NCBI GenBank assembly: GCA_016188705.1
Contig: JACPHH010000009.1
Span: forward strand, 98,091-162,090
Length of the DNA stretch: 64,000 nucleotides
Origin: Candidatus Peregrinibacteria bacterium
GTDB taxonomy: Bacteria > Patescibacteriota > Gracilibacteria > UBA1369 > JACRIC01
Direction of reading: 5' to 3'
Position numbers and translations under genes: made by a program. Shown piece after piece: positions 6,662 through 64,000 of this stretch. The notes below the pieces were generated by a model. It did no database searches. It was not told the DNA's origin and saw only the letters and a program-made list of their open reading frames with translations. The stretch's first letter is position 1. Every line of letters starts with the position of its first letter.

Positions 6662-6825
6662 AGGAGCCTCTGAAAAACGTACCATCTACTGCAATTTTAC
6701 CATGTCGGCTGCAAAAAGTTCAAAGCTCCTCAACGTATCTTATTTGATACGCTTTCGTCGTTTTTCACATTTTTCGCTCGACATGGTAAAATTTCGTTAC
6801 GAAGTTACGTTTTTCAGAGGCTCCT
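6662..6825. repeat. Family-1 palindromic element, full-length archetype (164 bp, MITE/REP-like)
   Basis: Perfect 20-nt terminal inverted repeat aggagcctctgaaaaacgta / tacgtttttcagaggctcct. Inner 13-nt IR ttttaccatgtcg / cgacatggtaaaa. Central hairpin gtatc-ttattt-gatac. About 95% identical to 50352..50512. Confidence 0.9.
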
Positions 6826-7711: not shown

Positions 7712-8227
7712 ATGCCTTTTGTTTATCTTAGTCTTGGATCGAATCTTGGGAGAAAAGAATCAAATCTGAAAAAAGCTCTTCGCGAAATGAAGACTCGCAA
7801 TTTTTGGATCAAGCAAGTTTCTTCTGTTTATAAAACCGAACCGGTGGGAAAAACCGATCAAGCTTGGTTTTTCAATATGTGTGCTATTGTCGATACCCGT
7901 TATCCGCCGGATATTCTTTTAAACAAATTGCAGGAGATCGAGCTCGCCTGCGGCCGTGATCGGTCGCAGGAACGAGAAAAATGGGGGCCTCGGACTATCG
8001 ATATTGACATTCTTTTTTTTGAAGATGTTATTCTTGATACTCCCAATCTTAAAATTCCTCATCCTCTCATGCACGAACGCCGGTTTGTGCTTGTTCCGCT
8101 TAATGAAATCGCGCCTCTTTTTACTCATCCTGTTTTGAAAAAAACCGTACATCGTCTCTTGATGGAGTGCCCTGATGCCAGTATAGTGGAGCCGTTTTCA
8201 CGTATGGCTTTGAAGAAAAATTATTAG
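7712..8227 (+). CDS. folK: 2-amino-4-hydroxy-6-hydroxymethyldihydropteridine diphosphokinase (HPPK)
   Basis: VYLSLGSNLG, TEPVG, RWGPRTIDIDILFF, IPHPLMHERRFVLVPLNEIAP. Track ORF starts at 7682; ATG 7712 (MPFVYLSLGSN) matches the usual FolK N-terminus. Confidence 0.9.
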   Translation: MPFVYLSLGSNLGRKESNLKKALREMKTRNFWIKQVSSVYKTEPVGKTDQAWFFNMCAIVDTRYPPDILLNKLQEIELACGRDRSQEREKWGPRTIDIDILFFEDVILDTPNLKIPHPLMHERRFVLVPLNEIAPLFTHPVLKKTVHRLLMECPDASIVEPFSRMALKKNY

Positions 8228-37046: not shown

Positions 37047-37691
37047 ATGTATACTTTTGATGTAAGAAACGTTATCAATCAGGCGACAGGTTATAAGGAT
37101 ACACATACAGTCGATCTTCCGCTTGCCTTTCCCGAGGTCAGAAATTTTACCGAGGTCAAGGATTTTCCTCAGACCGAGGATTTTACTGAAATCAAGAATT
37201 TTTCCGAAACTAAAGATTTTTCTCAGACCGACGATTTTTCTAAGACAAAAGAAATTTTCGCGGTTTCGCCCATGCATCTGGAAGTCAGCTTTCGCAAACT
37301 TCCGGATGGCATTAACGCGGAGGTGGAAAAACTTCAGGTTTCACTGCAATTTCCTTGCAGCCGCTGTATAACACCCTATGTGCTTTCTCTCGATATCAAG
37401 CCTTTTGAGGCGTGTTTTTACATTAACGCGCCACAAGAAATACTTGATGAGGCTGGAATCTTTTTTATCGATAAAAAACGGCTTACAGTAGACCTTTCTG
37501 ATATGCTGCGCCAGGAAATCCTCTTGCATTTTCCTTTGGTTCCGTTATGCTCTAAGAGTTGCAAGGGTTTATGTGTCACGTGTGGTAAAAATCGAAATCA
37601 TACAAAGTGCCGTTGTACTCATAAATCTGTAACAAGTTCAGATTCTCAGCAACCATTTCAGAATATTAAAAATCTTATAAGTGGATATTAG
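37047..37691 (+). CDS. YceD/DUF177 family protein, with hexapeptide tandem-repeat insertion
   Basis: C-terminal CSKSCKGLCVTCGKNRNHTKCRC and DLSDMLRQEILLHFP are typical of DUF177. Conserved position immediately upstream of rpmF. Seven 18-bp repeats at 37134-37259. Confidence 0.85.
   Translation: MYTFDVRNVINQATGYKDTHTVDLPLAFPEVRNFTEVKDFPQTEDFTEIKNFSETKDFSQTDDFSKTKEIFAVSPMHLEVSFRKLPDGINAEVEKLQVSLQFPCSRCITPYVLSLDIKPFEACFYINAPQEILDEAGIFFIDKKRLTVDLSDMLRQEILLHFPLVPLCSKSCKGLCVTCGKNRNHTKCRCTHKSVTSSDSQQPFQNIKNLISGY
37134..37259 (+). repeat. 7 x 18-bp in-frame tandem repeat inside yceD-like gene
   Basis: Units: gaggtcagaaattttacc / gaggtcaaggattttcct / cagaccgaggattttact / gaaatcaagaatttttcc / gaaactaaagatttttct / cagaccgacgatttttct / aagacaaaagaaattttc. 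They encode (E/Q/K)(V/T/I)(R/K/E/D)(N/D/E)F(T/P/S). Confidence 0.9.
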
Positions 37692-39537: not shown

Positions 39538-42270
39538 TCATCGAACGCCTTGCGTCAGCTCCTCGGTGCTCAAATTATTGAGGTTTTCTTCTTCAGTAAC
39601 TTCGAGCACTTTTTGAATCACTTTTGCAACCTCGGCACGGTTGAGTCCTTCGTAGGGACGGAATGTTTCGCCATTGGAATCGCCGCTCATGATTCCGTTT
39701 TCTTTTACCGTTGCTATGTATGAAGCACATGAGTCGGAACTTGGCAGGTCGGTAAATTCACCTCCGTAGGTGGCTTGTTCAAGATTGAGCGCTTCGACAA
39801 TGCTCTGCGCAACCATGCACCTTGAAGCCTGTTCGTCAGGCGTTGTTTTCGCGATGGAAAAGCCTTCATTTTCAGCGGTTTTGTAAAATCCTTTTGCCCA
39901 ATGGCTTTTCGCGAGCTTGTTTCCCGTCTCTCCCTCTGACTCATCTCGTCCGGTACTTTTCAAAAGTATTTTCGTAAATTCAGCATTCGTCACGGCATTT
40001 CCCGGACCGTATTCCGCCGGACTATAGCCTTTCACTATGCCAAGATTTTTCATTTCCGAAACGAAACCCGTGAACCATTGATCATCGTCGACATCTTTAA
40101 ATGGAATAATGCCATCTTTAAATTTCGCTTCAATGGACACTTTTTTCGCTTCTTCAAACTTCTGTTTTAGAGTTTCCGCTTCGTTTTCCGACAGATTTTC
40201 AATATTGATGTTTTTCAATTCTGCCTGAAATTTATCCGCTCCGTAGAGGTTATATTGAACTATTTCCGAAAGTTGAGCCTGAAGCTTCTTGTTTTGAATT
40301 TTTAGATCTTTCATTTCCTGCTTCATTTGCATGACGATTTCCGCGAGTTGATCCTTTTCATTCAGTAATTTTTTGAAATTTTCCTCATCCGCAAAGCCTC
40401 CCATTTCCAAAGTTCTTCCGAGGTTAATATCCATTTGCTCATCATATTTACTCAAAGATTCCAATATGTCGCTTTGGATTCCTTTAACAATTTTTTCAAC
40501 GGCTTCGGAAGACATATCATCACCCATTTCATCAAAAAGGTGATCTTTGGCGTCTTTATCTTCAAAATCCATATCATTCATCATTTCACGAGGATCGCGC
40601 CTCATGTCGTCTTTGAAAAAGTTTTCAATGAGTGTTTTTTCTTCGCCGCTTACGCTTGTCTTATATTTCCTGAAATAGAGTTCCGCAAGATAGTTTATTT
40701 TCGGCTCTACTTTGCGTCCAAGCGGATCCATCACTTTTTCAAAAAATTTCCAAATAATTTCCGGCTTGTTTTCCTTCGCCGCCAATTCTTGCGTTTTTTT
40801 CGCGCCTTTCTCGACTTTTGCAATCAAATTAAGAAGATCGCTGATTACCGATTGGGCTTTTTCTTCTTTCATAATGCCCTGCAAAACCGTCAAAACCTCT
40901 TTTGCCTGGGCGATTTCCTGCATGACATTTTCGAGTTCATTCGTCGCCATGCCGCCTTCACGGACAGAATTGATCTGCTGCCAGATTTTTTCCATATTTT
41001 TCCACGGCTCGGAATCCCAAAATTCACGATCCGCGTCCCATATATTCGTAAATTCTTCACGGGCATCATCCATAATGTCACGCATTTCTTGTCTCATGTC
41101 TTCGCTCTCATCTTGAGAAAGATCGACTTCCTGAATCAATTTCATGGCAAGAGTTACCGCCTCGTCCATTTGTTTTATGATTGCTTCTATTTTTCCAAAC
41201 TGCTCATCAAAATGCGCGATTATCTCATCTTGAGGGCTCCAATCGACTTTATCGGCGACGCCCTGTTTTTCCGCTTCGTAACGTTGTTTTACGAAATCCT
41301 TGATAAAATCGTAATAGCCGTCATTCATGTAACGATCATTGCTTCGGTCAAGCGCTTCATTCAGCACCCAAAACGCATCGCCTTTATTATTGTAATTCCA
41401 GAAATATTGACCTTCTCGCTCTCCGGATTTTACGGCATTTAATCTCGATTCAAGTTCTTTTTTAAAATTTTGCACGAGTTTTTCATATTCTCCCGCCTTC
41501 TCAATCTTTGCCTTGATTTGTGTCGCAGCTGTTTGCAGCTCATCGAGATGGGTTTGCACGAATTTTGAAAAATCGTCGCCCGCGCTTATTTCCTTACCTT
41601 TTAGCTCGGCTTTCTCTAGGTATTCGATCATTTTCTCAACCCTCTTTAGGCTTTTTGTCGCATTTTTTACTGTGTGACTGAATTCAAATTTGTAGTTTTT
41701 TATCGTTCGAGTCATATCCCTTATTTCCCGATCGCCACTTTTTCCACACGGCCCATCATGCTGAACTTCCACGTTTCCGCTTTGAGCAGCTTCTTCATTT
41801 GAATAGGTTTTTCCATCCGTGCCGCAAACTTCCTCTGAACCATTATTGAGTTCCATTCCTTGCGGCTTAAAATCATCTTCTTCTGGAATAAAATTATTCG
41901 TATTTTCTTGATCATTGCCGGGTTCCTTCCATTCATCTTCCGATGTATTTCCTGTATTTTCTTCTGTTTGCGTAAAATCTTCTTCCGTAAACCCATTTTG
42001 GTCATCCTCATTGTTTATTCCATCAGACTCTTCACTTTGAAAATCTCCTTCTTCTGGAGGATTTTGCACATCGGTTCCTGTTGATCCCTCGGTATTTGTC
42101 GGTTCTTTCGGTATTTCACTTTGACTTATCAGATTTGTATAGCCCAATTTTCCAAGTACGGGTCCTGCGATAAGCATCACGAGGAGGAAAGCTCCGGCCC
42201 CCATAATGGAATACTTTTTCTGAAGGTAGTCAGAAAAATTCTCACTGTACTTTTTGTCTTTGTTTTCCAT
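39538..42270 (-). CDS. Large cell-envelope protein: N-terminal TM, acidic region, Kazal-like motif, long coiled coil, C-terminal SLH domains
   Basis: TM segment GAGAFLLVMLIAGPVLG. VCGTDGKTYSNEEAAQSGNVEVQHDGPCG is Kazal-like. About 500 aa are heptad-rich (Glu/Lys). SLH repeats FKDVDDDQWFTGFV...GIVKGY and FTDLP...YIATVKENGIMSGDSNGETFRPYEGLNRAEVAKV. Confidence 0.8.
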   Translation of the reverse strand: MENKDKKYSENFSDYLQKKYSIMGAGAFLLVMLIAGPVLGKLGYTNLISQSEIPKEPTNTEGSTGTDVQNPPEEGDFQSEESDGINNEDDQNGFTEEDFTQTEENTGNTSEDEWKEPGNDQENTNNFIPEEDDFKPQGMELNNGSEEVCGTDGKTYSNEEAAQSGNVEVQHDGPCGKSGDREIRDMTRTIKNYKFEFSHTVKNATKSLKRVEKMIEYLEKAELKGKEISAGDDFSKFVQTHLDELQTAATQIKAKIEKAGEYEKLVQNFKKELESRLNAVKSGEREGQYFWNYNNKGDAFWVLNEALDRSNDRYMNDGYYDFIKDFVKQRYEAEKQGVADKVDWSPQDEIIAHFDEQFGKIEAIIKQMDEAVTLAMKLIQEVDLSQDESEDMRQEMRDIMDDAREEFTNIWDADREFWDSEPWKNMEKIWQQINSVREGGMATNELENVMQEIAQAKEVLTVLQGIMKEEKAQSVISDLLNLIAKVEKGAKKTQELAAKENKPEIIWKFFEKVMDPLGRKVEPKINYLAELYFRKYKTSVSGEEKTLIENFFKDDMRRDPREMMNDMDFEDKDAKDHLFDEMGDDMSSEAVEKIVKGIQSDILESLSKYDEQMDINLGRTLEMGGFADEENFKKLLNEKDQLAEIVMQMKQEMKDLKIQNKKLQAQLSEIVQYNLYGADKFQAELKNINIENLSENEAETLKQKFEEAKKVSIEAKFKDGIIPFKDVDDDQWFTGFVSEMKNLGIVKGYSPAEYGPGNAVTNAEFTKILLKSTGRDESEGETGNKLAKSHWAKGFYKTAENEGFSIAKTTPDEQASRCMVAQSIVEALNLEQATYGGEFTDLPSSDSCASYIATVKENGIMSGDSNGETFRPYEGLNRAEVAKVIQKVLEVTEEENLNNLSTEELTQGVR

Positions 42271-42456: not shown

Positions 42457-42536
42457 GGATTATACGCACATTACTTTGAAAAAAAGCACATATCGCTGGC
42501 AGGCAAGAGTTCGTCGCTCGGATACTCGGCCGGATC
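42457..42536 (+). repeat. Family-2 interspersed repeat, copy a
   Basis: ggattatacgcacattactttgaaaaaaagcacatatcgctggcaggcaagagttcgtcgctcggatactcggccggatc shares long blocks with 53743..53873 and 58657..58708. Confidence 0.8.
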
Positions 42537-48434: not shown

Positions 48435-49046
48435 ATGAAAAGCAAAAAAAATCTTTTAGAACAGTTAAAAGCATTGCCCCATTTTAATAAAAATACGGTC
48501 TGTCAGCTGAGCAAACAGTTGGGGCTTAAAGATTCCACGGTTCATACTTATATCAGCCGATTTTTAAAATATAAAGAAATTTTGCAGCTAAAAAATGGGT
48601 TATATGTGTCCGGGGATTTTTTCGAAAAAAACCGAATGGATATTTCATACTCGTTTTATCTTGCTAATATTATTCGCACTCCGTCTTACGTCACTTCTTG
48701 GTCAGCTCTTCAATATTATAATCTTGCTACCGAAGCAATCTATTCTATAACTTCCGTTACTCCCAAGGTCACAAGAAGCTATCAGACAAAAGCAGGAAAT
48801 TTTTCGTATCAGTCAATAAAAAGAGACCTTTTTTCAGATTTTTCTTTAGCCAAAGGAAATTTTGATTTTTATATTGCTTCGCCATCTAAAGCGTTGTTTG
48901 ATGTATTGTATTTCAGAACTCATCAGTTTCGCGGCGTTACGATAGAAAATATTAACGCACTCATAGAAGAACTGCGCATAGATATTGACGAAATGGATAA
49001 AACGGAACAGAAAAAATTTTATTCAATGCTTAAAAAATGTATATGA
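48435..49046 (+). CDS. AbiEi-family antitoxin / transcriptional regulator (type IV TA)
   Basis: N-terminal wHTH-like FNKNTVCQLSKQLGLKDSTVHTYISRFLKYKEILQLKNGLY, then a C-terminal domain of AbiEi size. Precedes an AbiEii-type nucleotidyltransferase with an ATGA overlap. Confidence 0.75.
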   Translation: MKSKKNLLEQLKALPHFNKNTVCQLSKQLGLKDSTVHTYISRFLKYKEILQLKNGLYVSGDFFEKNRMDISYSFYLANIIRTPSYVTSWSALQYYNLATEAIYSITSVTPKVTRSYQTKAGNFSYQSIKRDLFSDFSLAKGNFDFYIASPSKALFDVLYFRTHQFRGVTIENINALIEELRIDIDEMDKTEQKKFYSMLKKCI

Positions 49047-50320
49047 GCGAACAAATAGTCACCATTTTAAAAAGAAAGCTTGATGATTTTTCCGCTTATG
49101 GAGGAATCGACGCCGAAACCATGCGTAATGCCATGAAAGAAGAATTGCAGTTTTACGTCCTCAATTTTATTTATCACCATCCGCAGTACAATAAATGGAT
49201 TATGTACGGCGGTTCCGCGCTCCGCATCATTCACAAACTTCATCGCATGTCTGTTGATTTGGATTTTGAAGTTTCTCATTCAGTGACAGATAAATTTCTG
49301 AAAAAATTAAAAAAAGAAATTGAAAATTATTTTATGAATACTTACGGCGCCAGCGCTGATTTTCTTACAATAAAAATAACTCCTGGCAGAGGGTTGCTTG
49401 TAAAATTTCACGTTGGCAAAGAATTAAGCCTTGGTCACTCATCAAATCAGGTGCACGTAAAAATTGATCTGAACCATTTTTTCGCCCCGAAAACGGTTAT
49501 CGAACGCTGGCCGATAAACCATGGCCAGCTTTCATTTGTTATTGTGACGTACAACATGTCTTCTCTGATGGCGAGCAAGTTGGCCGCTATCTTTCTCCGT
49601 GGCGCTCGTGGAGTTGGAAATGTTGTTTATGAAGAAAAGGGGCGCGATATTTATGATCTGCTTTGGTATATGGGTAAAAAAATAGTGCCAGATTTTGATT
49701 ATCTCATTGCCAAAGGCATTGACATCAAAGATCCGCGCATTCTTTTTGATAAGCTTACATTGCAGATGAACAAAGTAAGTGACTCAAATCTTAAAAACGA
49801 CCTATCTCCTTTGTTTGCAGATTCAACATTTATCACCAACTGGCTGAAAAATTGGAGAGAGAGTTATTTCAGGCTTTTAGATGGATATAACATTTGTACA
49901 GTAACAAATCTTCTTGCCATAGGCCTTACGATAGATTCTCGTACCGATGTGTTTTCCTTTATTTATATTTATGCCACGCTGGAAGGTCCTGAAATAAAGA
50001 TAGAATATCGATTGAGCGACTACTGGATACATAATCGGGAAGGCGACTTACCTATCGTCATTGACGAACATATCATCAAGCTTATGACTCCTGAAGCGCA
50101 AAAAAACATGAGACCAAAAGTAATGAAACAAAAGCAGTATGCCACACTTTTTTATCAGAAGACCGAGAATTATTTCAAAAAAATAAATCACGTAATGTTC
50201 GGCGATAGTATCGTTACGAAAATTATCCTCATGACGACAAATAATTTCAATCCAAAAGAGCAAATAGTGTTGAATAAGTCAACGTTATTATCATGCGAGC
50301 TTGATGATTTATTAAAATAA
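49043..50320 (+). CDS. AbiEii/AbiGii-family nucleotidyltransferase toxin with about 150-aa C-terminal extension
   Basis: MYGGSALRIIHKLHRMSVDLDFEV (NTase GS...DxD motif), SLMASKLAAI, GRDIYDL. 425 aa, versus about 250-300 aa as I recall for the family. Confidence 0.8.
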   Translation: MSEQIVTILKRKLDDFSAYGGIDAETMRNAMKEELQFYVLNFIYHHPQYNKWIMYGGSALRIIHKLHRMSVDLDFEVSHSVTDKFLKKLKKEIENYFMNTYGASADFLTIKITPGRGLLVKFHVGKELSLGHSSNQVHVKIDLNHFFAPKTVIERWPINHGQLSFVIVTYNMSSLMASKLAAIFLRGARGVGNVVYEEKGRDIYDLLWYMGKKIVPDFDYLIAKGIDIKDPRILFDKLTLQMNKVSDSNLKNDLSPLFADSTFITNWLKNWRESYFRLLDGYNICTVTNLLAIGLTIDSRTDVFSFIYIYATLEGPEIKIEYRLSDYWIHNREGDLPIVIDEHIIKLMTPEAQKNMRPKVMKQKQYATLFYQKTENYFKKINHVMFGDSIVTKIILMTTNNFNPKEQIVLNKSTLLSCELDDLLK

Positions 50321-50351: not shown

Positions 50352-50512
50352 GAACCTCTGAAAAACGTACCATCTACTGCAATTTTACCATGTCGGCTGC
50401 AAAATGTTCAAAGCTCCTCAACGTATCTTATCTGATACGCCTTCGTCGCTTTTCACATTTTTCGCTCAACATGGTAAAATTTCGTTACGAAGTTACGTTT
50501 TTCAGAGGTTCC
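50352..50512. repeat. Family-1 palindromic element, full-length copy
   Basis: gaacctctgaaaaacgta...tacgtttttcagaggttc. About 95% identical to 6662..6825, with a compensatory G:C to A:T change in the terminal stem. Confidence 0.9.
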
Positions 50513-50580
50513 TTAGATGACTTTGGATTGCTTTTTTCCCAGCGAAATTTATAGTATGAAAAGACGATTGAATCATTCTC

Positions 50581-53742: not shown

Positions 53743-53873
53743 CGGATCATACGCACATTACTTTGAATAAGTCAGAATCTCGGCACGCGGAAGCTCGTCC
53801 GGATCATACGTTTTTTCCTTTGAAAAAAAATACATATCGCTGGAAGGAGGGAGCTCGTCGCTCGGATACTCGG
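53743..53873 (+). repeat. Family-2 interspersed repeat, copy b (two tandem units)
   Basis: cggatcatacgcacattactttgaa...gaagctcgtccggatcatacg, followed by tttgaaaaaaaatacatatcgctggaaggagggagctcgtcgctcggatactcgg. Units are bounded by ggatcatacg. Confidence 0.8.
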
Positions 53874-53953
53874 GTGCCTTTCAAAGGCGTTTCATTGTGA
53901 TTTTTTAGTTCGTGCTGTATAATTTTTAAGAAAACTTTTTGAATTATTTCTCT

Positions 53954-55461
53954 ATGAGTGAACATATATCCATTACAAAACGATCGGAAAATTATCCTCA
54001 ATGGTATCTCGATATTATAGAAGCAGCCGATCTTGCTGAACATTCGGTCGTGAAAGGCTGCATGGTCATTAAACCCTACGGCTACAGCATTTGGGAAAAT
54101 ATTCAAAAAATACTTGATCGAAAGTTTAAGGAAACAGGCCATGTGAACGCGTATTTTCCACTCTTTATTCCAAAGTCTTTTTTGAGTCGCGAAGCTGAGC
54201 ATATTCAAGGATTTGCCAAAGAATGCGCTGTCGTGACCCATCATCGCCTTATAAATGACCCCGAGGGCAAAGGCGTGATCGTCGATCCCGACGCGAAACT
54301 TGAAGAGGAACTTATCGTGCGTCCCACTTCGGAAACCATCATCCACGCGACTTACGCCAAGTGGATTCAGTCATGGAGAGATCTTCCAATTCTCATAAAT
54401 CAATGGGCGAATGTTGTGCGATGGGAACTGCGAACCAGACTTTTTTTGCGGACTGTCGAGTTTTTGTGGCAGGAGGGCCACACGGCTCATGCCACGGAAA
54501 AGGAAGCTGAAGCAGAAACTTTGAAAATGTATGAAGTGTATAAAAATTTTGCTCAAGATTATTTTGCTTTGCCGATTGTCGGCGGACTGAAAACCGAAGC
54601 GGAAAAATTCGCAGGCGCGCTTCGAACCTATACCATTGAAGCAATGATGCAGGACAAAAAGGCGCTCCAGACAGGAACTTCGCATAATCTCGGCCAAAAT
54701 TTCGCACAAGCGTTTGACATTCAATTTACGGATCGAGATGGCGTTCGAAAATATGTATGGCAGACGAGCTGGGGCGTGAGTACTCGGCTTATTGGGGCTC
54801 TTATTATGGCTCACGGTGATGACCGAGGCTTGATTCTTCCTCCTAAAATCGCCCCTATAAAAATTGTTATCATTCCGATTTGGAAAACGGATGAGGAAAA
54901 AATGGCAGTTATTTCTTACGTCTACGAACTCAAAAAGATGGTTGCATCGCTTTTTTCTGATATGAGTTTTGAAACTTCGAATTCGAGTATTCACATCGAT
55001 GAACGGGATCACCTGACTCCTGGAAGCAAATTTCACGAATGGGAAAAAAAGGGCGTTCCTGTGCGAATTGAAGTTGGCCCAAAAGATATCGAAAAAGATC
55101 AAGTGGTATTGGTTCGTCGCGACACATCGGAAAAATCTTTCGTACCGCGCGGATCGGCAGAAAAAGAAATTGAGCGAATTTTGAGCGAAATACAGGAGAA
55201 ACTTTTTAAACGCGCTTTAGATTTTCAACGAAATAATTCGCATGAAGTCAATAATTATAAGGAATTTAAAGAAATTTTGGAAAAGATGGCGGTTTCATCT
55301 ATGCTCATTGGTGCGGCTCGAATAAATGTGAAAAGAAAATCAGCGAAGAAACTCTGGCTACCATTCGTTGTATTCCGTTTGACCAGAAAAAGGAAAAAGG
55401 CAGTTGTATTTTCTGTGGCGGCGCGTCCAAAAACCGCGTCCTCTTCGCCAAAGCCTATTAG
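53954..55461 (+). CDS. proS: Prolyl-tRNA synthetase (archaeal/eukaryotic-like type), interrupted by a 1-nt frameshift near 55281-55285
   Basis: Class II motifs FRTEL-like ([33 protein letters not shown]). After ...KEFKEILEK the authentic C-terminus [58 protein letters not shown] continues in the -1 frame and stops at 55459-55461. The track ORF (to 55486) stays open by chance with a non-homologous tail. Confidence 0.88.
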
Positions 55462-55496
55462 GCAGTGTTCATTATACGCATACTGAGTAAGAAGGC

Positions 55497-55757
55497 TTAA
55501 AAATCTCTGTAGGCAATTTTTCTGTGTCTTATGTGAACAATAACAATTTTATGGTCATTTTTGAGAACTTGAAATATCACTCTATAGTCTCCTACTCTCA
55601 TTCGATAAAAGGTTTTCAGTGTTTGTATTTTTTTTACACCTCCTGTTTCCGGAAATTTTTTAAGCTCGTCTATTTTTTTAAATATGTTTTCGTGAAAAAC
55701 GGCATCAATTTTTCGTAAATCCTTTTCAACTGAAATTTTGAACTCTATTCCCATCAT
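55497..55757 (-). CDS. RelE/ParE-family type II toxin
   Basis: KKIQTLKTFYRMRVGDYRVIFQVLKNDHKIVIVHIRHRKIAYR is the canonical RelE/ParE C-terminal pattern. Confidence 0.85.
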   Translation of the reverse strand: MMGIEFKISVEKDLRKIDAVFHENIFKKIDELKKFPETGGVKKIQTLKTFYRMRVGDYRVIFQVLKNDHKIVIVHIRHRKIAYRDF

Positions 55758-56084: not shown

Positions 56085-56232
56085 GGAAACCCTGATAAAT
56101 ATGCTTACTACTGCAAATTGCAAAATTTGGCTGCAAACGCTTCAGACCTCCTCGCCGTATCTTCTTCTGATACGCCTTCGTCGGTCGCTCAGCGTTTTCG
56201 CTCAAATTTTGCAATTTTCGTAATGAAAAATC
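56085..56232. repeat. Family-1 element, divergent full-length copy overlapping the 5-prime end of the S-layer gene ORF
   Basis: ggaaaccctgataaatatgcttactactgcaaattgcaaaatttggctgcaaacgcttcagacctcctcgccgtatcttcttctgatacgccttcgtcggtcgc...ttttcgtaatgaaaaatc is collinear with copies 6662 and 2620. Confidence 0.75.
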
Positions 56233-58649
56233 ATATGAAAGCATATTTTAAAAAATATATTGGGACAGTCCTTATAGTTGCCTTTCTAGGGACAACTGGG
56301 ACATCATATCTGTTTGACCAAACAGTCATGGCGGATTCTCAGGTGGGACCGACGGCTGTTTTGCAGGTTTCTCCAACGGGAGGTTCGATACAAACAACCT
56401 TTACATTCGACGCGTCACTTTCAACCAATGCACGCGGTTCCAGGGGGAATCTCGATTACAGAATAAATTTTGAATACTCATCTTCCTCCTTTACCACATG
56501 GAACAGCGTAAGCCAATTCGACTACACCTATACCCAATCCGGCAATAAAAAGGTCATTCTCGACGTTCGGGACAGGGAAACAGGTTTAACCGACCGTGCT
56601 ATTCTCAGTCTCAATGTCGGCGAAAAACTGTCATGGAATGCTGAAATTGCCGTTTCACCCCTCAAAGGCGATAGCAATACCTCATTTCGATTTCAAATGC
56701 AGATGACGAGTGATCTTGCGACTCCTGTCACGGACTATGAAGTTCGTTGGGATTTTGACGGAGATAACGCTTGGGATACGCGTTTTTCAAATCAACATAC
56801 CGCGTATCATCTCTTTTCAAAAACCGGCTACTTTACGCCGAAAGCCGAAGCGCGCGATCCGAGTGGGAATACCGTCCTTGTTTTCGGACTCGGTGAAGAT
56901 AATACAGAATTGGGCGAAAAGCGTGAAGATATGATTCTCGTGGCTCGATCAGGCGCGCCGGATGCCAATATAAGCGTCTATCCTGGTGTCGGAATTGCCA
57001 ATTCCACCATATTTTACCTTGATGGTTCTGATTCTGTCGACCTTGAAGACCTTTTCAAAATTCAGTATCGTTTTGATTTTCAAAATGATGGCATTTTCGA
57101 TACGGATTTTTCATCAAATGCCAAAGCTTCGTATATTTACCCGCTTCCAGGTACGCAAACTGCGGTTGTGCAGGTAAAAGACAAAGATGGGCACATGGAT
57201 GAGGCTTACATTATGGTGGAAGTGCGTGAGCATGACACACCGCCGCAAGCGGATTTTACCATTCGAGGCGATGGAAAACTCGCGGAACAGCCTTATTCGA
57301 AAAATGGAACAGCGATTGGAACCACTTCCACTGTTTTTTCTTTCAGCGCCCAGAGTGTCCGTGACAATGAAGATTCCTCTACGAATTTACAAGTACGATT
57401 CGATTTCGACGGCGATACAATTTTTGATACCGCATTTTCCACCAATAAACGAGCCGAATACCGTTATTTAAAAATCGGTAATTTTACCGCTATGATGCAG
57501 GTACTCGACAGCGCCGGCAGTATCACTTCGGTGTCAAAAGAAGTTACCATTGTTGCCAATACTGATCCTGAAGCGAAACTTATCATTACGCCGTTAGCAG
57601 GCACGCCCGCAACGGTTTTTACCTTTGATCCGAGAAATTCGCGAGACGCCCAGTATCGAAATTCCTCGCTTCGTGTACGCTATGACTTCAATTCCGACGG
57701 TATTTACGATACGAAATTTGAAAGCATCAAAAGCAGAAGGGAGACATTTAAAAATCCTGGCAAAAAATCGATTACGCTCCAAGTAATGGATCCCGAGGGA
57801 AAAATCGCTACCGCCACGCAGCAAGTTGAAATTTATTCCAACCAGACTCCGGTAGCTCAATTTGATATTTCACCTCGAGAAGGGACTTTTTCCACGAACT
57901 TTGTTTTTGACGCTTCAAAATCTCTTGATCCTGAGCCGAGTTCGGGTAAGCTTCAATATCGTTTTGATTTCGATTACACAGGTCCTAATGACATTGAATA
58001 CGATTCCAATTTCAGCAGTAATCCCATCCGAAAAATTCAGTATAATCAAGTCAATAAAATCGGAAAAATTCAAGTTCGAGTTGAAGTGAAAGATGCTGAT
58101 GGAAAAACCACTACCGCCATTTCAGAAATTTCGCTGCATTGGTCTTCTCAATACATTGAATACTTTAGACGCAAAGGCGTGCTTCGAGGATATGAAAAGG
58201 GAGAGATGAAACCCGATCAGCCTATTACTCGAGCTGAATTTACCAAAGTCATTTTAGAAACTCTGGATATTCCTTTAAATGGCGTAAAGTTTGAACAGAG
58301 ATTTACCGATGTACGAAAAACGGATTGGTTTTCAAAATATGTTTTAAAAGCCGAATCGCTCGGCATTATTCAAGGCTACGACAATCAAACTTTTCGTCCG
58401 AATGAGCCGGTAACGCGAGCCGAAGCGCTGGCTATTATTTTTCGAGCTTTTGAAATTCCGTCACAATCATCGAAAAAAGTATTTCCCGATGTCGCGATGG
58501 GACAGTGGTTTACGAGTTATGTATCCAGCGCCTATGAATCAGGTCTTATTAAAGGATACACTGATGGTTCCTTTCGACCTCATGGACTTATCACTCGCGG
58601 AGAGGCTTCCAAAATCAGCTATCTCGCCAGTCAAAAATACGATTTTTAG
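56223..58649 (+). CDS. S-layer candidate: signal/TM, about seven PKD-like repeats, three C-terminal SLH domains
   Basis: Repeating roughly 90-aa units (TTFTFDAS.S......L.YR.DF..DG..D), then HWSSQYIEYFRRKGVLRGY, FTDVRKTDWFSKYVLKAESLGIIQGYDNQTFRPNEPVTRAEA and FPDVAMGQWFTSYVSSAYESGLIKGYTDGSFRP. Probable start ATG 56223 or 56235; track ORF start 56043 reads through the repeat. Confidence 0.85.
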   Translation: MKNHMKAYFKKYIGTVLIVAFLGTTGTSYLFDQTVMADSQVGPTAVLQVSPTGGSIQTTFTFDASLSTNARGSRGNLDYRINFEYSSSSFTTWNSVSQFDYTYTQSGNKKVILDVRDRETGLTDRAILSLNVGEKLSWNAEIAVSPLKGDSNTSFRFQMQMTSDLATPVTDYEVRWDFDGDNAWDTRFSNQHTAYHLFSKTGYFTPKAEARDPSGNTVLVFGLGEDNTELGEKREDMILVARSGAPDANISVYPGVGIANSTIFYLDGSDSVDLEDLFKIQYRFDFQNDGIFDTDFSSNAKASYIYPLPGTQTAVVQVKDKDGHMDEAYIMVEVREHDTPPQADFTIRGDGKLAEQPYSKNGTAIGTTSTVFSFSAQSVRDNEDSSTNLQVRFDFDGDTIFDTAFSTNKRAEYRYLKIGNFTAMMQVLDSAGSITSVSKEVTIVANTDPEAKLIITPLAGTPATVFTFDPRNSRDAQYRNSSLRVRYDFNSDGIYDTKFESIKSRRETFKNPGKKSITLQVMDPEGKIATATQQVEIYSNQTPVAQFDISPREGTFSTNFVFDASKSLDPEPSSGKLQYRFDFDYTGPNDIEYDSNFSSNPIRKIQYNQVNKIGKIQVRVEVKDADGKTTTAISEISLHWSSQYIEYFRRKGVLRGYEKGEMKPDQPITRAEFTKVILETLDIPLNGVKFEQRFTDVRKTDWFSKYVLKAESLGIIQGYDNQTFRPNEPVTRAEALAIIFRAFEIPSQSSKKVFPDVAMGQWFTSYVSSAYESGLIKGYTDGSFRPHGLITRGEASKISYLASQKYDF

Positions 58650-58656
58650 AGACTCC

Positions 58657-58708
58657 TTAGAAAAAAAGTACATATCGCTGGCAGGCGGGAGCTCGTCGCA
58701 GATCATGC
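58657..58708 (+). repeat. Family-2 interspersed repeat, copy c
   Basis: ttagaaaaaaagtacatatcgctggcaggcgggagctcgtcgcagatcatgc. Confidence 0.75.
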
Positions 58709-58757
58709 AATTTTTGGTTTTTTTCTTGCGAATGAAAAAATAATATGGTAAAATTTT

Positions 58758-60536
58758 ATGAAAGATTCTTTTTTTATGTTGTCAAAAATAAAGATGAAAT
58801 TTTTCTCTTGGAGAGCATTTTCAATCGCAAAAGCATTTTCAATATCGCTTTCCGTTTTGCTTGTCGTCTTTTTTTATAATCTTTCGTATCAGACGATATA
58901 TCAAATTTTTGCGCAGATACAGGCTTCCGCCTCTCAACCGATTCCATCAACGAATCCGGCAAGCGGTGAATCCTATATTGGCGAAGACGGCGCAACCTGG
59001 ACATATCTTAATGGAGCTTATCAGATGGCTGATGATCCTTCTACTGTTTGCAGCGACCTCGATAGCGATGGCTATTGGACGAATACCTGTTTTGCCACCA
59101 ATGGCGATTGCAATGATTCTGACGCTTTCGTTCATCCAAAAGCTACTGAAATTTGCGGCGATACTATTGATAATAACTGTGATGGCCAAAAAGAAGAATG
59201 GTGCCCCGCAACCACTTCTTCCTGCAGCGCCAGTGATAATTTTCTTTCGTGTTTTTCAAATACATTTTCCTTTGATACGTCATTTCTTTCTTCAACGCTT
59301 GATTCATTAAAAAATTCTCTTAATTCACTTTTTGGCAAAGGACAGCCTGATACCAATCCTCAAGCATCAACGAGCATATCTTCTGATTTTTCGCGTCTTA
59401 CTATTTCCACGAAAGCAGCGCTCAATCCATTGTCCGAAAGTGGAGCGATGGCTTTGAAAACGAATTCTCAAGTTGGATCAATTATCCTTAATAATCCAAC
59501 AAGTAATCTCAGCAGCGCAGGTCTTGCTCTCCAAAACAATGGCAATGTGGGTCTCTATGGTGAAGGAAAATCTACAGGTATTTTAGTTGAATCATATTCA
59601 GATATACAACCTAGTGTCGGTGTCTTTTCTACAGGCGATATCGGAACATTTGCCATTTCACAAACGAATATGGGCGGATATGCTTCCGGTACGAAGATTG
59701 GTATTTTCTCCGAGGGAAAAAATGTTGGAATCTATGCGAATGGAACTGATAACGGAATAACAGCGAATGCTCTTGGCGTAACTCCCAAATATGGCGATGT
59801 TATTGGAGCAGTGAATGGATCAGATGGATTGATTGCATGGGCTCTACTTGATGGCAAAGGATTCGACGGCAAAGGATATAGTTTGTTTACTCCTTTTTCT
59901 GCATTGACCGAAACCACCTCTGTAACAGGAAACACTTTTACCGACTCATTGACGACTTTGAATCTTATTGGCAATGAATCACAGCTTCCAAGTGATTTTA
60001 TGCTCAATATGATTGCAGGTTCCTTAACTGTACAAGATTCTCTCGCTCTCACTGGAAATCTTGATATAACAGGAGGTCTCAATGTGGGCGGAAATATTGT
60101 ATTAAAAGATGGATCGATTCTTACTCAGAGTGATATTCAGGCAGGTCCAGATGAACTAGGAAAAGTCACTCACCTGAGTTCTGGTAAAATATCGGTCGAA
60201 CTCGGTATTCATAGCATTGCCTTTGATAATAATGTCGAGGTTACAAACGACACTCTTGTTAAAGGCAAAGTTACGGCTGATGGAGGAATAGGCGCATTTT
60301 ATAGTGTTTTTAATGAAAATGGACTCGGCAATCCGTATGCCTCATGCGATTCGGGTGATTTTCTTGTTTCCTGCAGCGCATTTCTCTCGGATTCAAAACA
60401 ATATGTCGGGGCTCGGCCTTCAAAGCGCGGAGCACAATCATGCGAGGCATTTTCACAAAATTCCAATAAAACCGTGAGAGTCTATGCGTACTGTTTTGAT
60501 CCTCAGGGCGGTCATGGTCCATTTGAAATTCCATGA
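58758..60536 (+). CDS. Secreted repeat protein, paralog 1 (Cys-rich metal-binding-like motif, Gly-rich solenoid-like repeats, 4-Cys C-terminal module)
   Basis: N-terminal TM/signal. CSDLDSDGYW..C...GDCNDSDAFVHP.ATEICGDTIDNNCDG. Repeats such as NVGLYGEGKSTGILVES, IGIFSEGKNVGIYANGTDNGITA. C-terminal ASCDSGDFLVSCSA...SCEA...VRVYAYCFDPQG. Confidence 0.8.
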   Translation: MKDSFFMLSKIKMKFFSWRAFSIAKAFSISLSVLLVVFFYNLSYQTIYQIFAQIQASASQPIPSTNPASGESYIGEDGATWTYLNGAYQMADDPSTVCSDLDSDGYWTNTCFATNGDCNDSDAFVHPKATEICGDTIDNNCDGQKEEWCPATTSSCSASDNFLSCFSNTFSFDTSFLSSTLDSLKNSLNSLFGKGQPDTNPQASTSISSDFSRLTISTKAALNPLSESGAMALKTNSQVGSIILNNPTSNLSSAGLALQNNGNVGLYGEGKSTGILVESYSDIQPSVGVFSTGDIGTFAISQTNMGGYASGTKIGIFSEGKNVGIYANGTDNGITANALGVTPKYGDVIGAVNGSDGLIAWALLDGKGFDGKGYSLFTPFSALTETTSVTGNTFTDSLTTLNLIGNESQLPSDFMLNMIAGSLTVQDSLALTGNLDITGGLNVGGNIVLKDGSILTQSDIQAGPDELGKVTHLSSGKISVELGIHSIAFDNNVEVTNDTLVKGKVTADGGIGAFYSVFNENGLGNPYASCDSGDFLVSCSAFLSDSKQYVGARPSKRGAQSCEAFSQNSNKTVRVYAYCFDPQGGHGPFEIP

Positions 60537-60549
60537 TACTATCTCAATT

Positions 60550-62571
60550 ATGAAATATTTTCTCCACAAATATCCGATCTTTCTCATCAGTATAGTCCTT
60601 GTTTTGATTACAGGGATAACACAGCATGTTTTCGCGCTGGACTCGAATATTATCAACGAAATAGAAGCTCTGCTCCAAGGTTTATCCCAAAACCAATCGC
60701 AGCCTTCAGACGCGGCTCCTTCTCAAGCCGGAGTAATTCCGAGTTTCGGACGAATTGCCGTCGGTCCGTCTTCATCTGAAGCTATTTTACTTGGCGATAA
60801 TGAAGTTTCAGGCATCACAACCGGTGAAAATATCGGACTTGGAATCCAAACCAATGGAGCTCTCGGACTCGCAGCCATTTCGCATCGACTTTCAGCCCCT
60901 TCTTCAAATATTTACGATGCCGGCATTATTGTAAAAAATACAGGCAGCATAGGAATTTTTGCCTTTTCTCAGAATACTTCATCCAGTGGAAAAGGTTTGT
61001 ACATCAATGGCTCAAAAGATATCGGACTCTTTACATCTGGCGAAACAATAGGGCTTTCAATTTCAGGATTCAATACAGGACTAGAAGCACGCAGTGGATT
61101 TGGAGGCGCTTTTGGTTCTTCACAAACAAACGGTGTTGGAGTTTATGGTAGTGGAACAAACTTAGGCGTTACCGCGAGCGACGGTTCCTCGGTAGGAGCT
61201 AAGGATGGGATTGGTATATTTTCTTCACAAAATGCTTTTATCGCCGAAAAAGCCACACAATTTCAAATTCATTCCGATGCTTCCTTCCTTCAAAATGTTG
61301 ATGGTCAAAATCTGGATGTCATTGAGGTCGCGCAATTTGAATCACTGGATGCTATTCAAGCAAAAAGCGTTCAAGATGAATTATTGGTTGCAGGTATTCT
61401 AACTCTTGACGGAAATACTTTAAATATAGCCGACGGTCTCACTGCTTCTTCTGTCAAAATCGGTGGAAATTTTTCTTTTGAAGGCAATAACAGTTCTAAT
61501 ATCATTCGCTCGACATCGGATACCCTTGGAATCAACGATGATGTTATTATTTATGGAAATTTGAATGTAAATACTCGACTAAATGCTTACGAAATGGGCA
61601 ATATTACCATTCATGAATATAATGCAGCCGCTGAACAAGTAACTGTTTCCTGTGACAGTCCACAGACGCTTATGAACTGCGGAGCTTCCATTGAAGGTAC
61701 GAGCGATGCTGTTCAAAGCGTTTATCCTTCAAGCTCCGCATGCGTAGCTCGGCAGCCAAATGACGGTTATTTTTCAAAGCTCCACGTATATGCCTATTGC
61801 TTTGAACCGCAAGGCATTGGTTCCGATAATTGTACGGATCCCGATAATGATGGTGTCTGCGATAATGATAATTGTCCAAATACAGCGAATACGAACCAGT
61901 CCGATATCGATGGTGACGGGGTTGGCGATGCCTGCGATAATTGCGTCAACGATTCGAATGCCGACCAAGCTGACAGTAACGGCAATGGTATCGGTAATGT
62001 TTGTGAAAAAACTTCTACGACCTATGATCCTTGTTCTGCTGATCCTTCGCTTTGCGCCCAGGTCAATATCCCATTTGATACAAATAGTTCAAAAATCTGG
62101 GATTGGAAATGGAAGCCTACCTGTGAGCCGGATTGCACCAGTCAAACCGCCACAGTGAGCGCTACGGATTGCTACCCGACTGGAGGTTTCTGTGCGGAAA
62201 ATATTCCAACAACACAAAGTTTGAATGCCGATATTCTCACAGACTCCTCTTCTCTTGTTCAAGGATGGAACGCAGAAGATCCGCGTAATGGCAATGTTCT
62301 TGGTGATCTTTCTGTTTCAGCCCTTGCCTTCATGATTCAAATGAATAGAATCAGTGAACAGGATGTTGCCGCCATTACTGACGCTAACCAAGACTTGGCG
62401 GAAGCAGCTCTTAATCTCCTCAGCCAGTATAATTTTCGAGATGGATCTTGGAAAACTGGAGGCTGGAATGGACTTGATGGCTTTACAGATTCTCTCAACT
62501 CCGCGCTTCAATCTCTTGGTCAGGATGCTCTCAATCTTAATGATATCCGTGCTGGTAATTATGGAATATAA
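60550..62571 (+). CDS. Secreted repeat protein, paralog 2 (plus thrombospondin type-3-like Ca-binding repeats)
   Basis: Signal MKYFLHKYPIFLISIVLVLITGITQHVFA. Repeats IGLGIQTNGALGLAAIS, SIGIFAFSQ, GVGVYGSGTNLGVTASDG. Module VSCDSPQTLMNCGA...ACVA...LHVYAYCFEPQG. Then DPDNDGVCDNDNCPNTANTNQSDIDGDGVGDACDNCVNDSNADQADSNGNGIGNVC. ATG 60550 inside track ORF 60484..62571. Confidence 0.8.
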   Translation: MKYFLHKYPIFLISIVLVLITGITQHVFALDSNIINEIEALLQGLSQNQSQPSDAAPSQAGVIPSFGRIAVGPSSSEAILLGDNEVSGITTGENIGLGIQTNGALGLAAISHRLSAPSSNIYDAGIIVKNTGSIGIFAFSQNTSSSGKGLYINGSKDIGLFTSGETIGLSISGFNTGLEARSGFGGAFGSSQTNGVGVYGSGTNLGVTASDGSSVGAKDGIGIFSSQNAFIAEKATQFQIHSDASFLQNVDGQNLDVIEVAQFESLDAIQAKSVQDELLVAGILTLDGNTLNIADGLTASSVKIGGNFSFEGNNSSNIIRSTSDTLGINDDVIIYGNLNVNTRLNAYEMGNITIHEYNAAAEQVTVSCDSPQTLMNCGASIEGTSDAVQSVYPSSSACVARQPNDGYFSKLHVYAYCFEPQGIGSDNCTDPDNDGVCDNDNCPNTANTNQSDIDGDGVGDACDNCVNDSNADQADSNGNGIGNVCEKTSTTYDPCSADPSLCAQVNIPFDTNSSKIWDWKWKPTCEPDCTSQTATVSATDCYPTGGFCAENIPTTQSLNADILTDSSSLVQGWNAEDPRNGNVLGDLSVSALAFMIQMNRISEQDVAAITDANQDLAEAALNLLSQYNFRDGSWKTGGWNGLDGFTDSLNSALQSLGQDALNLNDIRAGNYGI

Positions 62572-62587
62572 TTTTTTTTCTTAATCA

Positions 62588-64000
62588 ATGAAACGTCTTC
62601 GCACTTACATATTTGGCTCCTTCCTTTCCGGACTTATTGTTCTCTTGATGCTCCATATTACATCAGCCGCTCAAATTGACGCTATCCCCAGCTCTCTGAA
62701 AACCGCAATTCCTGTCTCTTCTCCGTTACCTTCAGAGCCATCTACGGGATTTCTTACCTCTCTTCAGTCAAGCTTTAACACTTTTATGAATTTTTCGGAA
62801 AATGCGGTTGGAACTCCTGATGAAAATGGACCGATTCAGGGTTTAGTGACACCGAATTTTTCCGGAATAACTACAGGAGGCGGCGCAGAAAATCTCGGAA
62901 CCGAAATCACTCCGGAAGGCTCACTCGTCGTACGATCAGAGACATCTCCTGTTTCATTTTCTATCAATTCCACGAACACAGATGGTGTTGGTCTTATGGC
63001 TACATCTCTCAATTCTAATGGTATTGGAGTTTTCGCCACGGGATCAACGATTGGTATTCTGACAGAAGGCAAAAATGTTGGTACTTACGCAAAAGGATCG
63101 CAATATGGAATTTATGTGAATTCTGGTGAAATTGGCATTCAGGCTATTTCAGAAAATGGAATAGGAACTTCTATCTCGGGATCAAATGGTCTTGAAGCTC
63201 AGGGAAATGATTTTGGGGTACTTGGATATGGTACCGCAGCCGGCATCCTTGGGTTGCATCAATCTGACAATACATGGGGAGCGCTTGGCTATAATTATGA
63301 TAACATTCTTTATGGCTTCTATACTCCTTATGAAACGAAAATCGGAGGAACTCTTACTTCTAACGGTGAAATTGCCGTGGCAGGAAAGGCAAATATTTCA
63401 GGAGTCCTTTCCATTTTGAAAAAAGCCGTGATTGATACGGTTATTACGCCGATTTGGAAAAATACTTCGCCTTCTGAAGATACTGTCACATGGAATGCGC
63501 CATCAGTACAAGTGACGAATGATGTTCTTGACGGCACATCTGATGCCACGAATGTTAACGTCAATACCAATGGCGTCACGAATCAGATATCCGTCGGTTC
63601 CGGAGGTTTTGAAATTGGAAATGGAGCTATTCAAGGCGGCAATCAAACTTTTTCTCTTCCTAATAAACTCGAAGTACGTGATGGAAATAATCTTTATTCT
63701 CAAGGAACGATTACCGCTGATACGGAAATTGGAAGATTTTATTTTGAAGAATCAACGTATGAAGGAAGTTCTTCTGTTGCTTCCTGTGACACATCCAGAC
63801 AGCCCTACGTTCTTCTTGTTGGATGCAGTGGCCAGGTTACCAGCGGTGAAGGAACTATTCAATCCGCGGTTCCCTACACAATTATGGGCTACCAGAGCTG
63901 CAGAGTGTCGACTTCTGATTCTTCTACCAAGGCTCGAGCCTATGCGTACTGTTTCAATCCCGAAGGAAGCGGAAATAATAGTACGAATACGACAATTACT
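62588..64000 (+). CDS. Secreted repeat protein, paralog 3 (partial, runs off the window; absent from the ORF track)
   Basis: The manually translated frame is open from ATG 62588 to the window end: MKRLRTYIFGSFLSGLIVLLMLHITSAAQ..., GVGLMATSLNSNGIGVFATGSTIGILTEGKNVGTYAKGSQYGIYVNSGEIGIQAIS..., ASCDTSRQPYVLLVGCSG...SCRV...ARAYAYCFNPEG. Confidence 0.8.
   Translation, partial: MKRLRTYIFGSFLSGLIVLLMLHITSAAQIDAIPSSLKTAIPVSSPLPSEPSTGFLTSLQSSFNTFMNFSENAVGTPDENGPIQGLVTPNFSGITTGGGAENLGTEITPEGSLVVRSETSPVSFSINSTNTDGVGLMATSLNSNGIGVFATGSTIGILTEGKNVGTYAKGSQYGIYVNSGEIGIQAISENGIGTSISGSNGLEAQGNDFGVLGYGTAAGILGLHQSDNTWGALGYNYDNILYGFYTPYETKIGGTLTSNGEIAVAGKANISGVLSILKKAVIDTVITPIWKNTSPSEDTVTWNAPSVQVTNDVLDGTSDATNVNVNTNGVTNQISVGSGGFEIGNGAIQGGNQTFSLPNKLEVRDGNNLYSQGTITADTEIGRFYFEESTYEGSSSVASCDTSRQPYVLLVGCSGQVTSGEGTIQSAVPYTIMGYQSCRVSTSDSSTKARAYAYCFNPEGSGNNSTNTTIT

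Follow-up and report, generated by a model that had tools for sequence, protein, structure and literature searches.

Three tandem genes for secreted proteins with a PCSK9/resistin-like four-cysteine module in a Candidatus Peregrinibacteria genome

Near the end of a 64,000-nucleotide stretch of DNA from a Candidatus Peregrinibacteria bacterium (contig JACPHH010000009.1, positions 98,091 to 162,090; hereafter the window), three co-oriented genes encode proteins, here P1, P2 and P3, that have a common plan and a common four-cysteine (4-Cys) module. What these proteins are and what they might do is the question raised by this locus. A preliminary description, made from the sequence of the window alone, saw an operon of secreted paralogs whose module it could not place in any family, and took them for a diversifying cell-surface system. 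The operon-like triad of secreted paralogs with a common plan and module is supported by the present analysis; the remaining claims fared differently and are discussed below. We favour, with moderate confidence, the view that the triad encodes secreted, disulfide-stabilised stalk-and-head surface proteins which work with a neighbouring SLH/PKD protein and represent an uncharacterised bacterial family.

P1 (class A) is encoded at 58758..60536 (592 aa, TGA stop; coordinates are those of the window, on the plus strand unless stated) and starts with a signal or transmembrane (TM) segment. Judged from its orthologs, the true start is likely to be the second ATG at 58794 (MKFFSW...). P2 (class B; P0033) is encoded at 60550..62571 and has a signal peptide ending in VFA before LD. 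Its 673 aa are counted from the ATG that leaves a 13-nt gap after P1, and the longest mechanical open reading frame (ORF), starting at 60484, has 695 aa. P3 (class C; P0037) follows after a 16-nt gap and runs from 62588 to 64000, where it is cut by the end of the window with its reading frame still open. Orientation, gaps and the missing P3 stop all agree with the preliminary description, and a hydrophobic signal-type segment starts each of the three proteins. Convincing terminators were not found in the short same-strand gaps of the triad. Of the sizes given earlier (590 to more than 690 aa), the upper one does not apply to P3, which is complete on Logan contig L001 at 602 aa with a TAG stop; this contig encodes an identical P1 in the same gene order. 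The part of P3 beyond the window contains TSP3-like repeats and a MopE motif (TSP_3 and Cu-binding_MopE in the Logan annotation). Because a small convergent ORF of about 121-132 aa comes next after P3 on L001, the array consists of exactly three paralogs. The Logan call for P3 (610 aa; L001 8223-8249) reads through the TAG at 8223-8225, probably a gene-calling quirk, and the form in the protein library has 602 aa.

The four-cysteine module and its relatives

The module is located at 60294..60509 in P1 (C530/539/562/579; VYAYCFDPQG), where it is predicted to form a six-stranded beta sandwich, at 61573..61836 in P2 (C368/377/398/417; HVYAYCFEPQG; hmmsearch envelope residues 342-429) and at 63692..64000 in P3 (C400/413/438/455; RAYAYCFNPEG; envelope residues 369-471). 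The four common cysteines described earlier were thus found in all three proteins. Searched individually against Pfam, P1 scored 15.5 bits with PCSK9_C1 (PF18459), or 21.2 bits for the module alone (cutoff 31.3), and P2 scored 23.4 bits with PCSK9_C3 (PF18463; E 7.1e-5, cutoff 26.7), while P3 had no Pfam PCSK9_C match. The best relative reached 26.2 bits against the same PCSK9_C3 cutoff of 26.7.

Using a core profile (HMMER, E ≤ 1e-3), we identified 58 family representatives among 1.84 billion representative proteins, and the modules cut from these proteins were aligned (alignment A3). The A3 profile matched PCSK9 chains only among 177,635 PDB sequences, with E-values from 7e-9 to 3e-7. All three C-terminal modules of PCSK9 aligned, with the cysteines and the LTGCS, LGAY and AxAxC motifs in register; resistin chains were not among the PDB sequence matches at E ≤ 10. 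Pfam (E ≤ 0.01) recognised PCSK9_C3 in 13 of the 58 modules and PCSK9_C1 in five, with a best E-value of 3.8e-7. All four cysteines are present in 55/58 modules, with median spacings of 8/21/16, and 50/58 have exactly four. The published motif of the PCSK9 modules is C-17/19-C-8/9-C-18/25-C-11/23-C-C, with bridges 1-6, 2-5 and 3-4 (PMC9113161). Since the bacterial spacings fit this motif and the alignment is in register, the four cysteines correspond to PCSK9 Cys2-5. The module would accordingly carry C1-C4 and C2-C3 disulfides, with the third bridge missing.

A template-free AlphaFold2 (AF2) model of the P1 module, based on alignment A3, has six strands and a pLDDT of 86.5. The top Foldseek matches of this model in the PDB are to the PCSK9 C-terminal domain (CTD), with probabilities of 0.99-1.00, rmsd of 2.3-2.8 Å over ~72 columns and 20-25% identity. 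Next come resistin and RELM-beta (probability 0.8-1.0, ~69 columns, rmsd 3.3-4.0 Å), followed by weaker matches to the R2 pyocin fibre foot (6cl6) and the receptor-binding domain (RBD) of the cyanophage Pam1 tailspike (7eea), both at probabilities of 0.7-0.85. Matches to tail-fibre models in BFVD were weak (E ≥ 4e-3). As the sequence and structure evidence agree independently, profile and predicted fold together establish the module as a remote homologue, at the superfamily level, of the C-terminal resistin-like modules of PCSK9. By Pfam thresholds and by the six-Cys definition, it lies outside the PCSK9_C families. The preliminary description had fitted the module to no known family and recommended profile searches and structure prediction; these have now placed it as PCSK9-CTD/resistin-like, in part the outcome that the description had named as refuting it, although the bacterial family itself is uncharacterised. 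A search of the literature on bacterial homologues of the PCSK9 CTD or resistin found nothing relevant.

Most members of the family are secreted, have 150-330 aa and end in CF[DS]P[NQT]G. The usual plan comprises a signal peptide, a PPxGxVxPxFxGLxV motif (N-motif) a few residues past the predicted cleavage site, beta-repeat windings, IGxFY and the module, which is the most conserved part of the family and lies 5-14 residues from the C-terminus in most members. All members come from metagenomes or metagenome-assembled genomes (MAGs). None of the ten looked up bears a source name, and one cluster-mate is called just "hypothetical protein". The pattern YAYCF[DEN]P[QE] gave 13 matches in the GTDB species representatives (185,579 genomes), none of which was confirmed, so close relatives are absent from these representatives at this sensitivity.

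Several relatives depart from the usual plan. P0071 (L087 8001-8936), a secreted protein of 311 aa, has three tandem modules, each with Cys1 and Cys4 only, which is the same three-module layout as in the PCSK9 CTD. P0073 (L086 9123-10973, 616 aa), encoded two genes downstream of a single-copy family gene, adds an intein-like Hint/PT-HINT domain after its stalk and module. A contig from another lineage (L089 1-19870; ENA ERZ24794656) carries at least six large co-oriented genes in tandem, whose products range from 465 to more than 1,900 aa and in five cases are MopE-rich; P0043, P0053 and P0041 from this array contain the stalk and the 4-Cys module.

Paralogy and age of the triad

Pairwise BLASTP gave 25% identity over 450 aa for P1 and P2 (E 5.6e-12), 27% over 367 aa for P1 and P3 (E 1e-16) and 27% over 562 aa for P2 and P3 (E 5e-22). 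At the DNA level, the longest similarity among the three genes is 25-31 nt at 68-88% identity, over the YAYCF codons, and no repeats of 40 nt or more involving triad genes were found in 56-64 kb or anywhere in the window. Because only these short stretches are common to the genes, and the independent L001 contig has the same order, assembly collapse and recent duplication are ruled out.

An identity matrix and a neighbour-joining tree divide the proteins and their orthologs into three clean classes, A, B and C, with identities of about 37-52% within and 19-28% between classes. P1 has the class A orthologs P0002, P0034 and P0035 (37-43% identity), and P2 has class B orthologs in L003, L002 and L085 (36-41%). 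These three metagenome contigs are those in which members of the classes recur: L003 carries all three, L002 likewise, in the order A, B, C and with a LamG domain in its B protein, and in L085 the contig ends after A and B. On this comparison the classes are true, old paralogs from an ancient triplication, all three copies of which have been retained. Given the three classes and the single-gene relatives found at the same place in other genomes, the triad goes back to one ancestral gene, triplicated long ago at a locus that has been conserved.

The age of the classes bears directly on whether this is a diversifying system, as had been proposed. Tandem paralogs ending in a C-terminal beta-sandwich domain, with some weak structural likeness to phage fibre tips, are what might be expected of a hypervariable cassette of the diversity-generating retroelement (DGR) type, or of a receptor-binding cassette derived from a phage. 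However, no near-identical template/variable repeat is present in 56-64 kb or in the whole window, and orthologs of each class are conserved in other contigs. The sequence past position 64000, which the preliminary description had suggested inspecting, holds neither a further paralog nor a reverse transcriptase as far as it is available (to the convergent small gene on L001), that gene being the only one found downstream of the triad. P1, P2, P3 and four relatives gave no PHROG matches, and scans of IMG/VR viral contigs found no family members, ruling out a phage origin. A DGR-type or phage-derived cassette is thus largely refuted and in our view scarcely credible, and the idea of a diversifying system does not stand.

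Stalk, neighbourhood and proposed surface role

Upstream of the module, the P1 core begins with a predicted short amphipathic helix with heptad-like Leu spacing (LSSTLDSLKNSLNSLF; core residues 5-23 in the AF2 model), followed by a degenerate form of the N-motif, SSDFSRLTIS, recognised by motif comparison (together 59277..59405). A heptad-like helix lies near the N-terminus in all three classes, and the N-motif, seen in 40+ family members, reads VIPSFGRIAV in P2 and VTPNFSGITTG in P3. A block of Gly-x-Gly-(I/V)-(F/Y) repeats with a period of about 9-10 residues follows (59514..59768; AF2 core residues 84-168), for which nine beta strands are predicted at a pLDDT of about 63-74. All three classes conserve this region, which has no Pfam or PDB sequence match. 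Next comes a hexapeptide-like stretch (60024..60143; LTVQDS LALTGN LDITGG LNVGGN IVLKDG), the segment previously called tail-fibre-like, modelled as strands of 3-4 residues every six residues (core residues 254-293, pLDDT about 72).

The AF2 monomer model of the P1 core (residues 170-592) has a pLDDT of 62.8 and a pTM of 0.37, with the module above 90 pLDDT. Foldseek of the whole core recovered only the module, the top two matches, to endoglin (rmsd 18-19 Å), being meaningless. As the core profile matched no PDB sequence even at E ≤ 10, the stalk has no detectable likeness to trimeric autotransporter heads, RTX rolls or any other protein there. Bactofilin (PF04519) is not matched by P1, P2 or P3 at E ≤ 1. 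Two relatives (L093, 474 aa; L094, 498 aa) match it in the equivalent stalk region at 39.7-39.8 bits, above the cutoff of 27.9, and this similarity supports a beta-helical stalk for the family. The terms beta-solenoid and tail-fibre-like in the preliminary description serve as descriptions only, with no family-level match in P1-P3.

Each paralog carries its own accessory parts, and these differ both between classes and between orthologs. In P1, a Cys/Asp-rich putative metal-binding motif of the MopE type lies at 59106..59198 (residues 117-147), and its earlier recognition is confirmed by a score above the Pfam cutoff (PF11617, E 2.8e-12, 47.1 bits, cutoff 27). Matches to this motif dominated the homologue search with full-length P1, in which only P0002 was a true relative. 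P2 has TSP3-like DxDxDG repeats, presumed to bind calcium, at 61831..62016 (residues 428-489); these gave a partial match to NCBIfam MtsC (50.2 bits) but stayed below the PF02412 cutoff (21.9 bits against 25), and their assignment is weakly upheld. The further tail of roughly 190 aa reported for P2 is indeed present (62017..62568, about 185-190 aa). It is conserved, by eye in an alignment, in the class B ortholog of L003 and in P0040, and has no Pfam or PDB sequence match. P1, P2 and P3 have no SLH domain at Pfam E ≤ 1, and neither P1 nor P2 has an LPXTG ending or a C-terminal TM segment.

From N-motif to Cys1 the stalks measure 321, 304 and 311 residues in P1, P2 and P3, and 295 and 313 in the B and C proteins of L002. 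This similarity, against 84-235 residues in most single-gene relatives, raises the possibility of a heterotrimeric fibre in which A, B and C chains run in register with their heads around a pseudo-threefold axis, the single-gene relatives forming homotrimers. The PCSK9 modules pack as a pseudo-trimer, to which the resistin homotrimer is structurally homologous (PMC9113161). Wherever one class occurs the others occur as well (window, L003 and L002; in L085, A and B up to the contig end), their genes are tightly spaced, each has the short heptad-like N-terminal helix, and P0071 combines three modules in one chain. On the other hand, similar stalk lengths could be ancestral, and P0086, apparently the product of a single gene, also has 311 residues; Bactofilin-type stalks are monomeric beta-helices, and the accessory tails are very different between the classes. 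We consider such a fibre unlikely on balance. A bolder version, in which the triad would be a prokaryotic, three-chain counterpart of the PCSK9 CTD with its heads arranged as M1-M2-M3 and its N-motifs docked on the SLH/PKD protein, is a little less likely again. If true, the family would be a bacterial surface appendage of a new kind, and the vertebrate resistin/PCSK9 Cys/His-rich domain (CHRD) fold would have in it either its evolutionary source or its closest outgroup.

The gene directly upstream of the triad (56223..58649) encodes a wall-anchored protein with PKD repeats and three SLH stretches (Pfam: SLH 3.9e-42, PKD_4 1.3e-18, PKD 1e-16). An SLH-anchored PKD gene lies directly upstream of a family gene in seven of the ten loci for which upstream sequence is available (the window, L003, L084, L086, L092, L093 and JGI 3300072015), in the recurring order (ProRS), PKD/SLH, family gene(s), convergent small gene. 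The link of the triad to this adjoining gene, proposed from the window alone, is thereby strengthened. L003 has exactly the order of the window, with ProRS, PKD/SLH, A, B, C and the convergent small gene, while L084, L086, L092, L093 and the JGI contig have one small family gene downstream of PKD/SLH, some with a second nearby. ProRS and an FtsA-like gene are usually found upstream of PKD/SLH, as in the window. The other SLH protein that had been named as a partner (39538-42270, minus strand) is encoded 16 kb away, and no link between it and the triad was shown.

Taken together, these features suggest the following arrangement. In each protein a signal peptide is followed by a short amphipathic helix and the conserved N-motif, then by a long beta-repeat stalk of Gly-rich 9-10-residue repeats and hexapeptide-like windings, in that order, and then by a compact six-stranded beta-sandwich head in which two of the three PCSK9 disulfides are predicted to be kept. 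Class-specific additions are the MopE-type motifs, the TSP3-like calcium-binding repeats and the P2 tail. Behind the set lies an ancient triplication of one gene, which in related genomes is located directly downstream of a PKD/SLH wall-protein gene. As the fibres themselves lack a wall anchor, they are probably presented on the cell surface via the neighbouring SLH/PKD protein, or via the wall or S-layer. The resistin-like head could then serve as a ligand-binding, adhesin-type tip, probably within an oligomeric assembly.

Several observations weigh against this stalk-and-head reading. No window protein attains the Pfam gathering score for PCSK9_C, and the Foldseek E-values are weak (0.07-0.2) despite the high probabilities, which can be attributed to the small size of the domain. 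The model of the P1 core is poor overall, with large stretches of the stalk unmodelled, and in classes B and C the module is itself followed by other domains. Secretion, surface location and binding are predictions only. The PKD/SLH neighbour is missing in L087, which encodes the three-module protein, in L089, with its giant MopE array, and in L091. Moreover, its linkage to the family travels with ProRS and the FtsA-like gene, and part of it may reflect vertical synteny in one lineage.

The orientation of the proteins could also be the reverse of that proposed. Many surface proteins of monoderm bacteria are anchored via C-terminal binding domains, and the module might likewise be a proximal, lectin-like anchor that binds the cell's own wall polymer, the S-layer or the PKD/SLH protein, leaving the N-terminal part and the accessory modules to point outward. 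Its status as the most conserved part of the family would fit such a role, as would its constant co-occurrence with an SLH/PKD neighbour in ProRS-linked loci. In the R2 pyocin fibre foot and the Pam1 tailspike RBD, however, the equivalent sandwich is a distal receptor-binding tip, and the conserved N-motif just behind the signal peptide resembles an attachment motif. We judge a proximal anchor to be improbable, to about the same degree as a heterotrimeric fibre. Much more doubtful still is the notion that the three proteins are not structural but act, like the bactericidal resistin/RELM-beta, as secreted effectors or antimicrobials. The head fold held in common with resistin and RELM-beta and the absence of a wall anchor are compatible with it, but a surface structure is indicated by the length and repetitiveness of the stalks, by the calcium-binding repeats and by the conserved pairing with SLH/PKD, and the adjacent genes include none of an immunity-like or export type.

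Other features of the locus can be set beside this reading of the triad as surface proteins. The ProRS gene (53939-55486) has an apparent frameshift at 55270-55486, after which the ORF ends in an unrelated basic tail; the canonical C-terminus can be read in the adjacent frame, and the L003 ortholog is intact. The frameshift is either a sequencing or assembly error or real. Two types of ProRS occur at this locus: that of the window, L003 and L086 is archaeal-like (ProRS-C_1), and that of L084, L093 and JGI 3300072015 is of a bacterial type that includes an editing domain. Gene order is kept despite this difference. Between ProRS and PKD/SLH, the window has a minus-strand ORF of 86 aa (55497-55757) that is RelE-like by eye, in a place where none was seen in the related loci. 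Further upstream is a gene for an AbiEii-type toxin (49037-50320, plus strand).

An intergenic motif of ~45 nt, GAAAAAAAnTACATATCGCTGGnAGG...GAGCTCGTCGC, occurs in three plus-strand copies, each upstream of a gene, at 42478-42503, 53822-53847 and 58660-58685 (extended 42457-42529, 53801-53873 and 58639-58711), where zero copies are expected by chance. One copy lies between the PKD/SLH gene and P1. The motif, which is absent from L003 and has no Rfam match, could have a regulatory function or represent a small repeat element. Dispersed intergenic repeats of up to 162 nt (4445-4606, 6664-6825 and 50352-50513, two copies being 96% identical) have internal palindromic cores (...CTCTGAAAAACGT...ACTACTGCAA... 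/ AAATTTCGTTACGAAGTTACGTTTTTCAGAGG) and look like repetitive extragenic palindromic (REP) or miniature inverted-repeat transposable elements (MITEs). Shorter copies are found at 2600, 5476, 9107, 45700 and 56065, and one copy of this repeat lies immediately before the PKD/SLH gene. Inside the ORF at 37047-37691, a unit of 18 nt (6 codons) is present in at least five tandem copies (37128-37253). Rfam identified two tRNAs only in the window.

The remaining genes of the window bear on the lifestyle that had been suggested, that of a probable episymbiont with the triad as its host-contact apparatus. They encode ThiC, a ThiL-like protein, aspartokinase, Asd, alanine dehydrogenase, a sigma-54 activator, FemAB and a Mur ligase, and a class I/II aminotransferase gene adjoins that of a LysA-like decarboxylase. 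All three stop codons, TAA, TGA and TAG, are in use. UvrB has its best match, at 63%, in a Candidatus Peribacteria MAG, a marginal lead over Firmicutes proteins at 60-62%. With biosynthesis genes present and all stop codons used, the episymbiont proposal is unsupported; a role at the cell surface is plausible, but one as a host-contact apparatus is not backed by these data.

Relation to known systems

The fold and its eukaryotic homologues are already known, and surface proteins with MopE and TSP3 repeats are common. What appears to be new, in the sources searched, is a bacterial family homologous to the PCSK9 CHRD, its stalk-and-head architecture and its coupling to SLH/PKD genes. The PCSK9 Cys/His-rich domain and resistin are medically important and are treated as vertebrate inventions in the literature searched; a bacterial family with sequence-level homology would provide an outgroup for the fold and a simple, two-disulfide version to study. 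For the uncultured lineage itself, the family adds unannotated secreted proteins, apparently of stalk-and-head form, that are genetically tied to an SLH/PKD protein. The triad is a concrete candidate for a surface appendage or adhesin, with no evidence for a hypervariable or symbiosis-specific system.

The closest counterpart is the PCSK9 CTD, whose modules M1-M3 match the bacterial module at a profile E of 7e-9, with xxC-x2-G-x-LxGCS, LGAYP and AxAxC aligned, the Cys2-5 spacing retained and a six-stranded sandwich in the template-free model. The bacterial module differs in having four cysteines and not six, with Phe at the Cys6 position and no Cys1-Cys6 bridge, and in its invariant CF(D/S)PxG ending. 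Each window protein has one module, whereas PCSK9 has three in tandem, and the module is borne on a beta-repeat stalk in place of the subtilase of PCSK9. Resistin and the RELM proteins (1rgx, 1rfx, 1rh7) have the same head fold and are likewise secreted and disulfide-rich, with a helix and a head combined in one protein. The likeness is structural only, with no sequence-level match: these vertebrate hormone or defence proteins have ~90 aa, five disulfides and a coiled coil joined directly to the head, whereas the predicted helix of P1 lies ~320 residues upstream of it.

Phage and pyocin fibre tips also present an elongated beta stalk ending in a small beta sandwich, but identity to 6cl6 and 7eea is 7-14% and the triad sits in a chromosomal housekeeping context. 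The hexapeptide-like windings of P1, and the two relatives that score above the Pfam cutoff, recall Bactofilin; Bactofilins, however, are cytoplasmic polymers, whereas proteins of this family carry signal peptides. Finally, two groups of bacterial surface proteins come close to the triad in position or composition. The upstream gene encodes an SLH/PKD S-layer or S-layer-associated protein and is coupled to the triad or its relatives in several genomes, but P1-P3 themselves lack SLH or any other recognised wall-binding domain. With MopE/TSP3 surface proteins (e.g. MYXO-CTERM MtsC-like), the triad has in common the MopE motifs of P1 and P3 and the TSP3-like repeats of P2 and P3, which here are short accessory modules and do not define the family.

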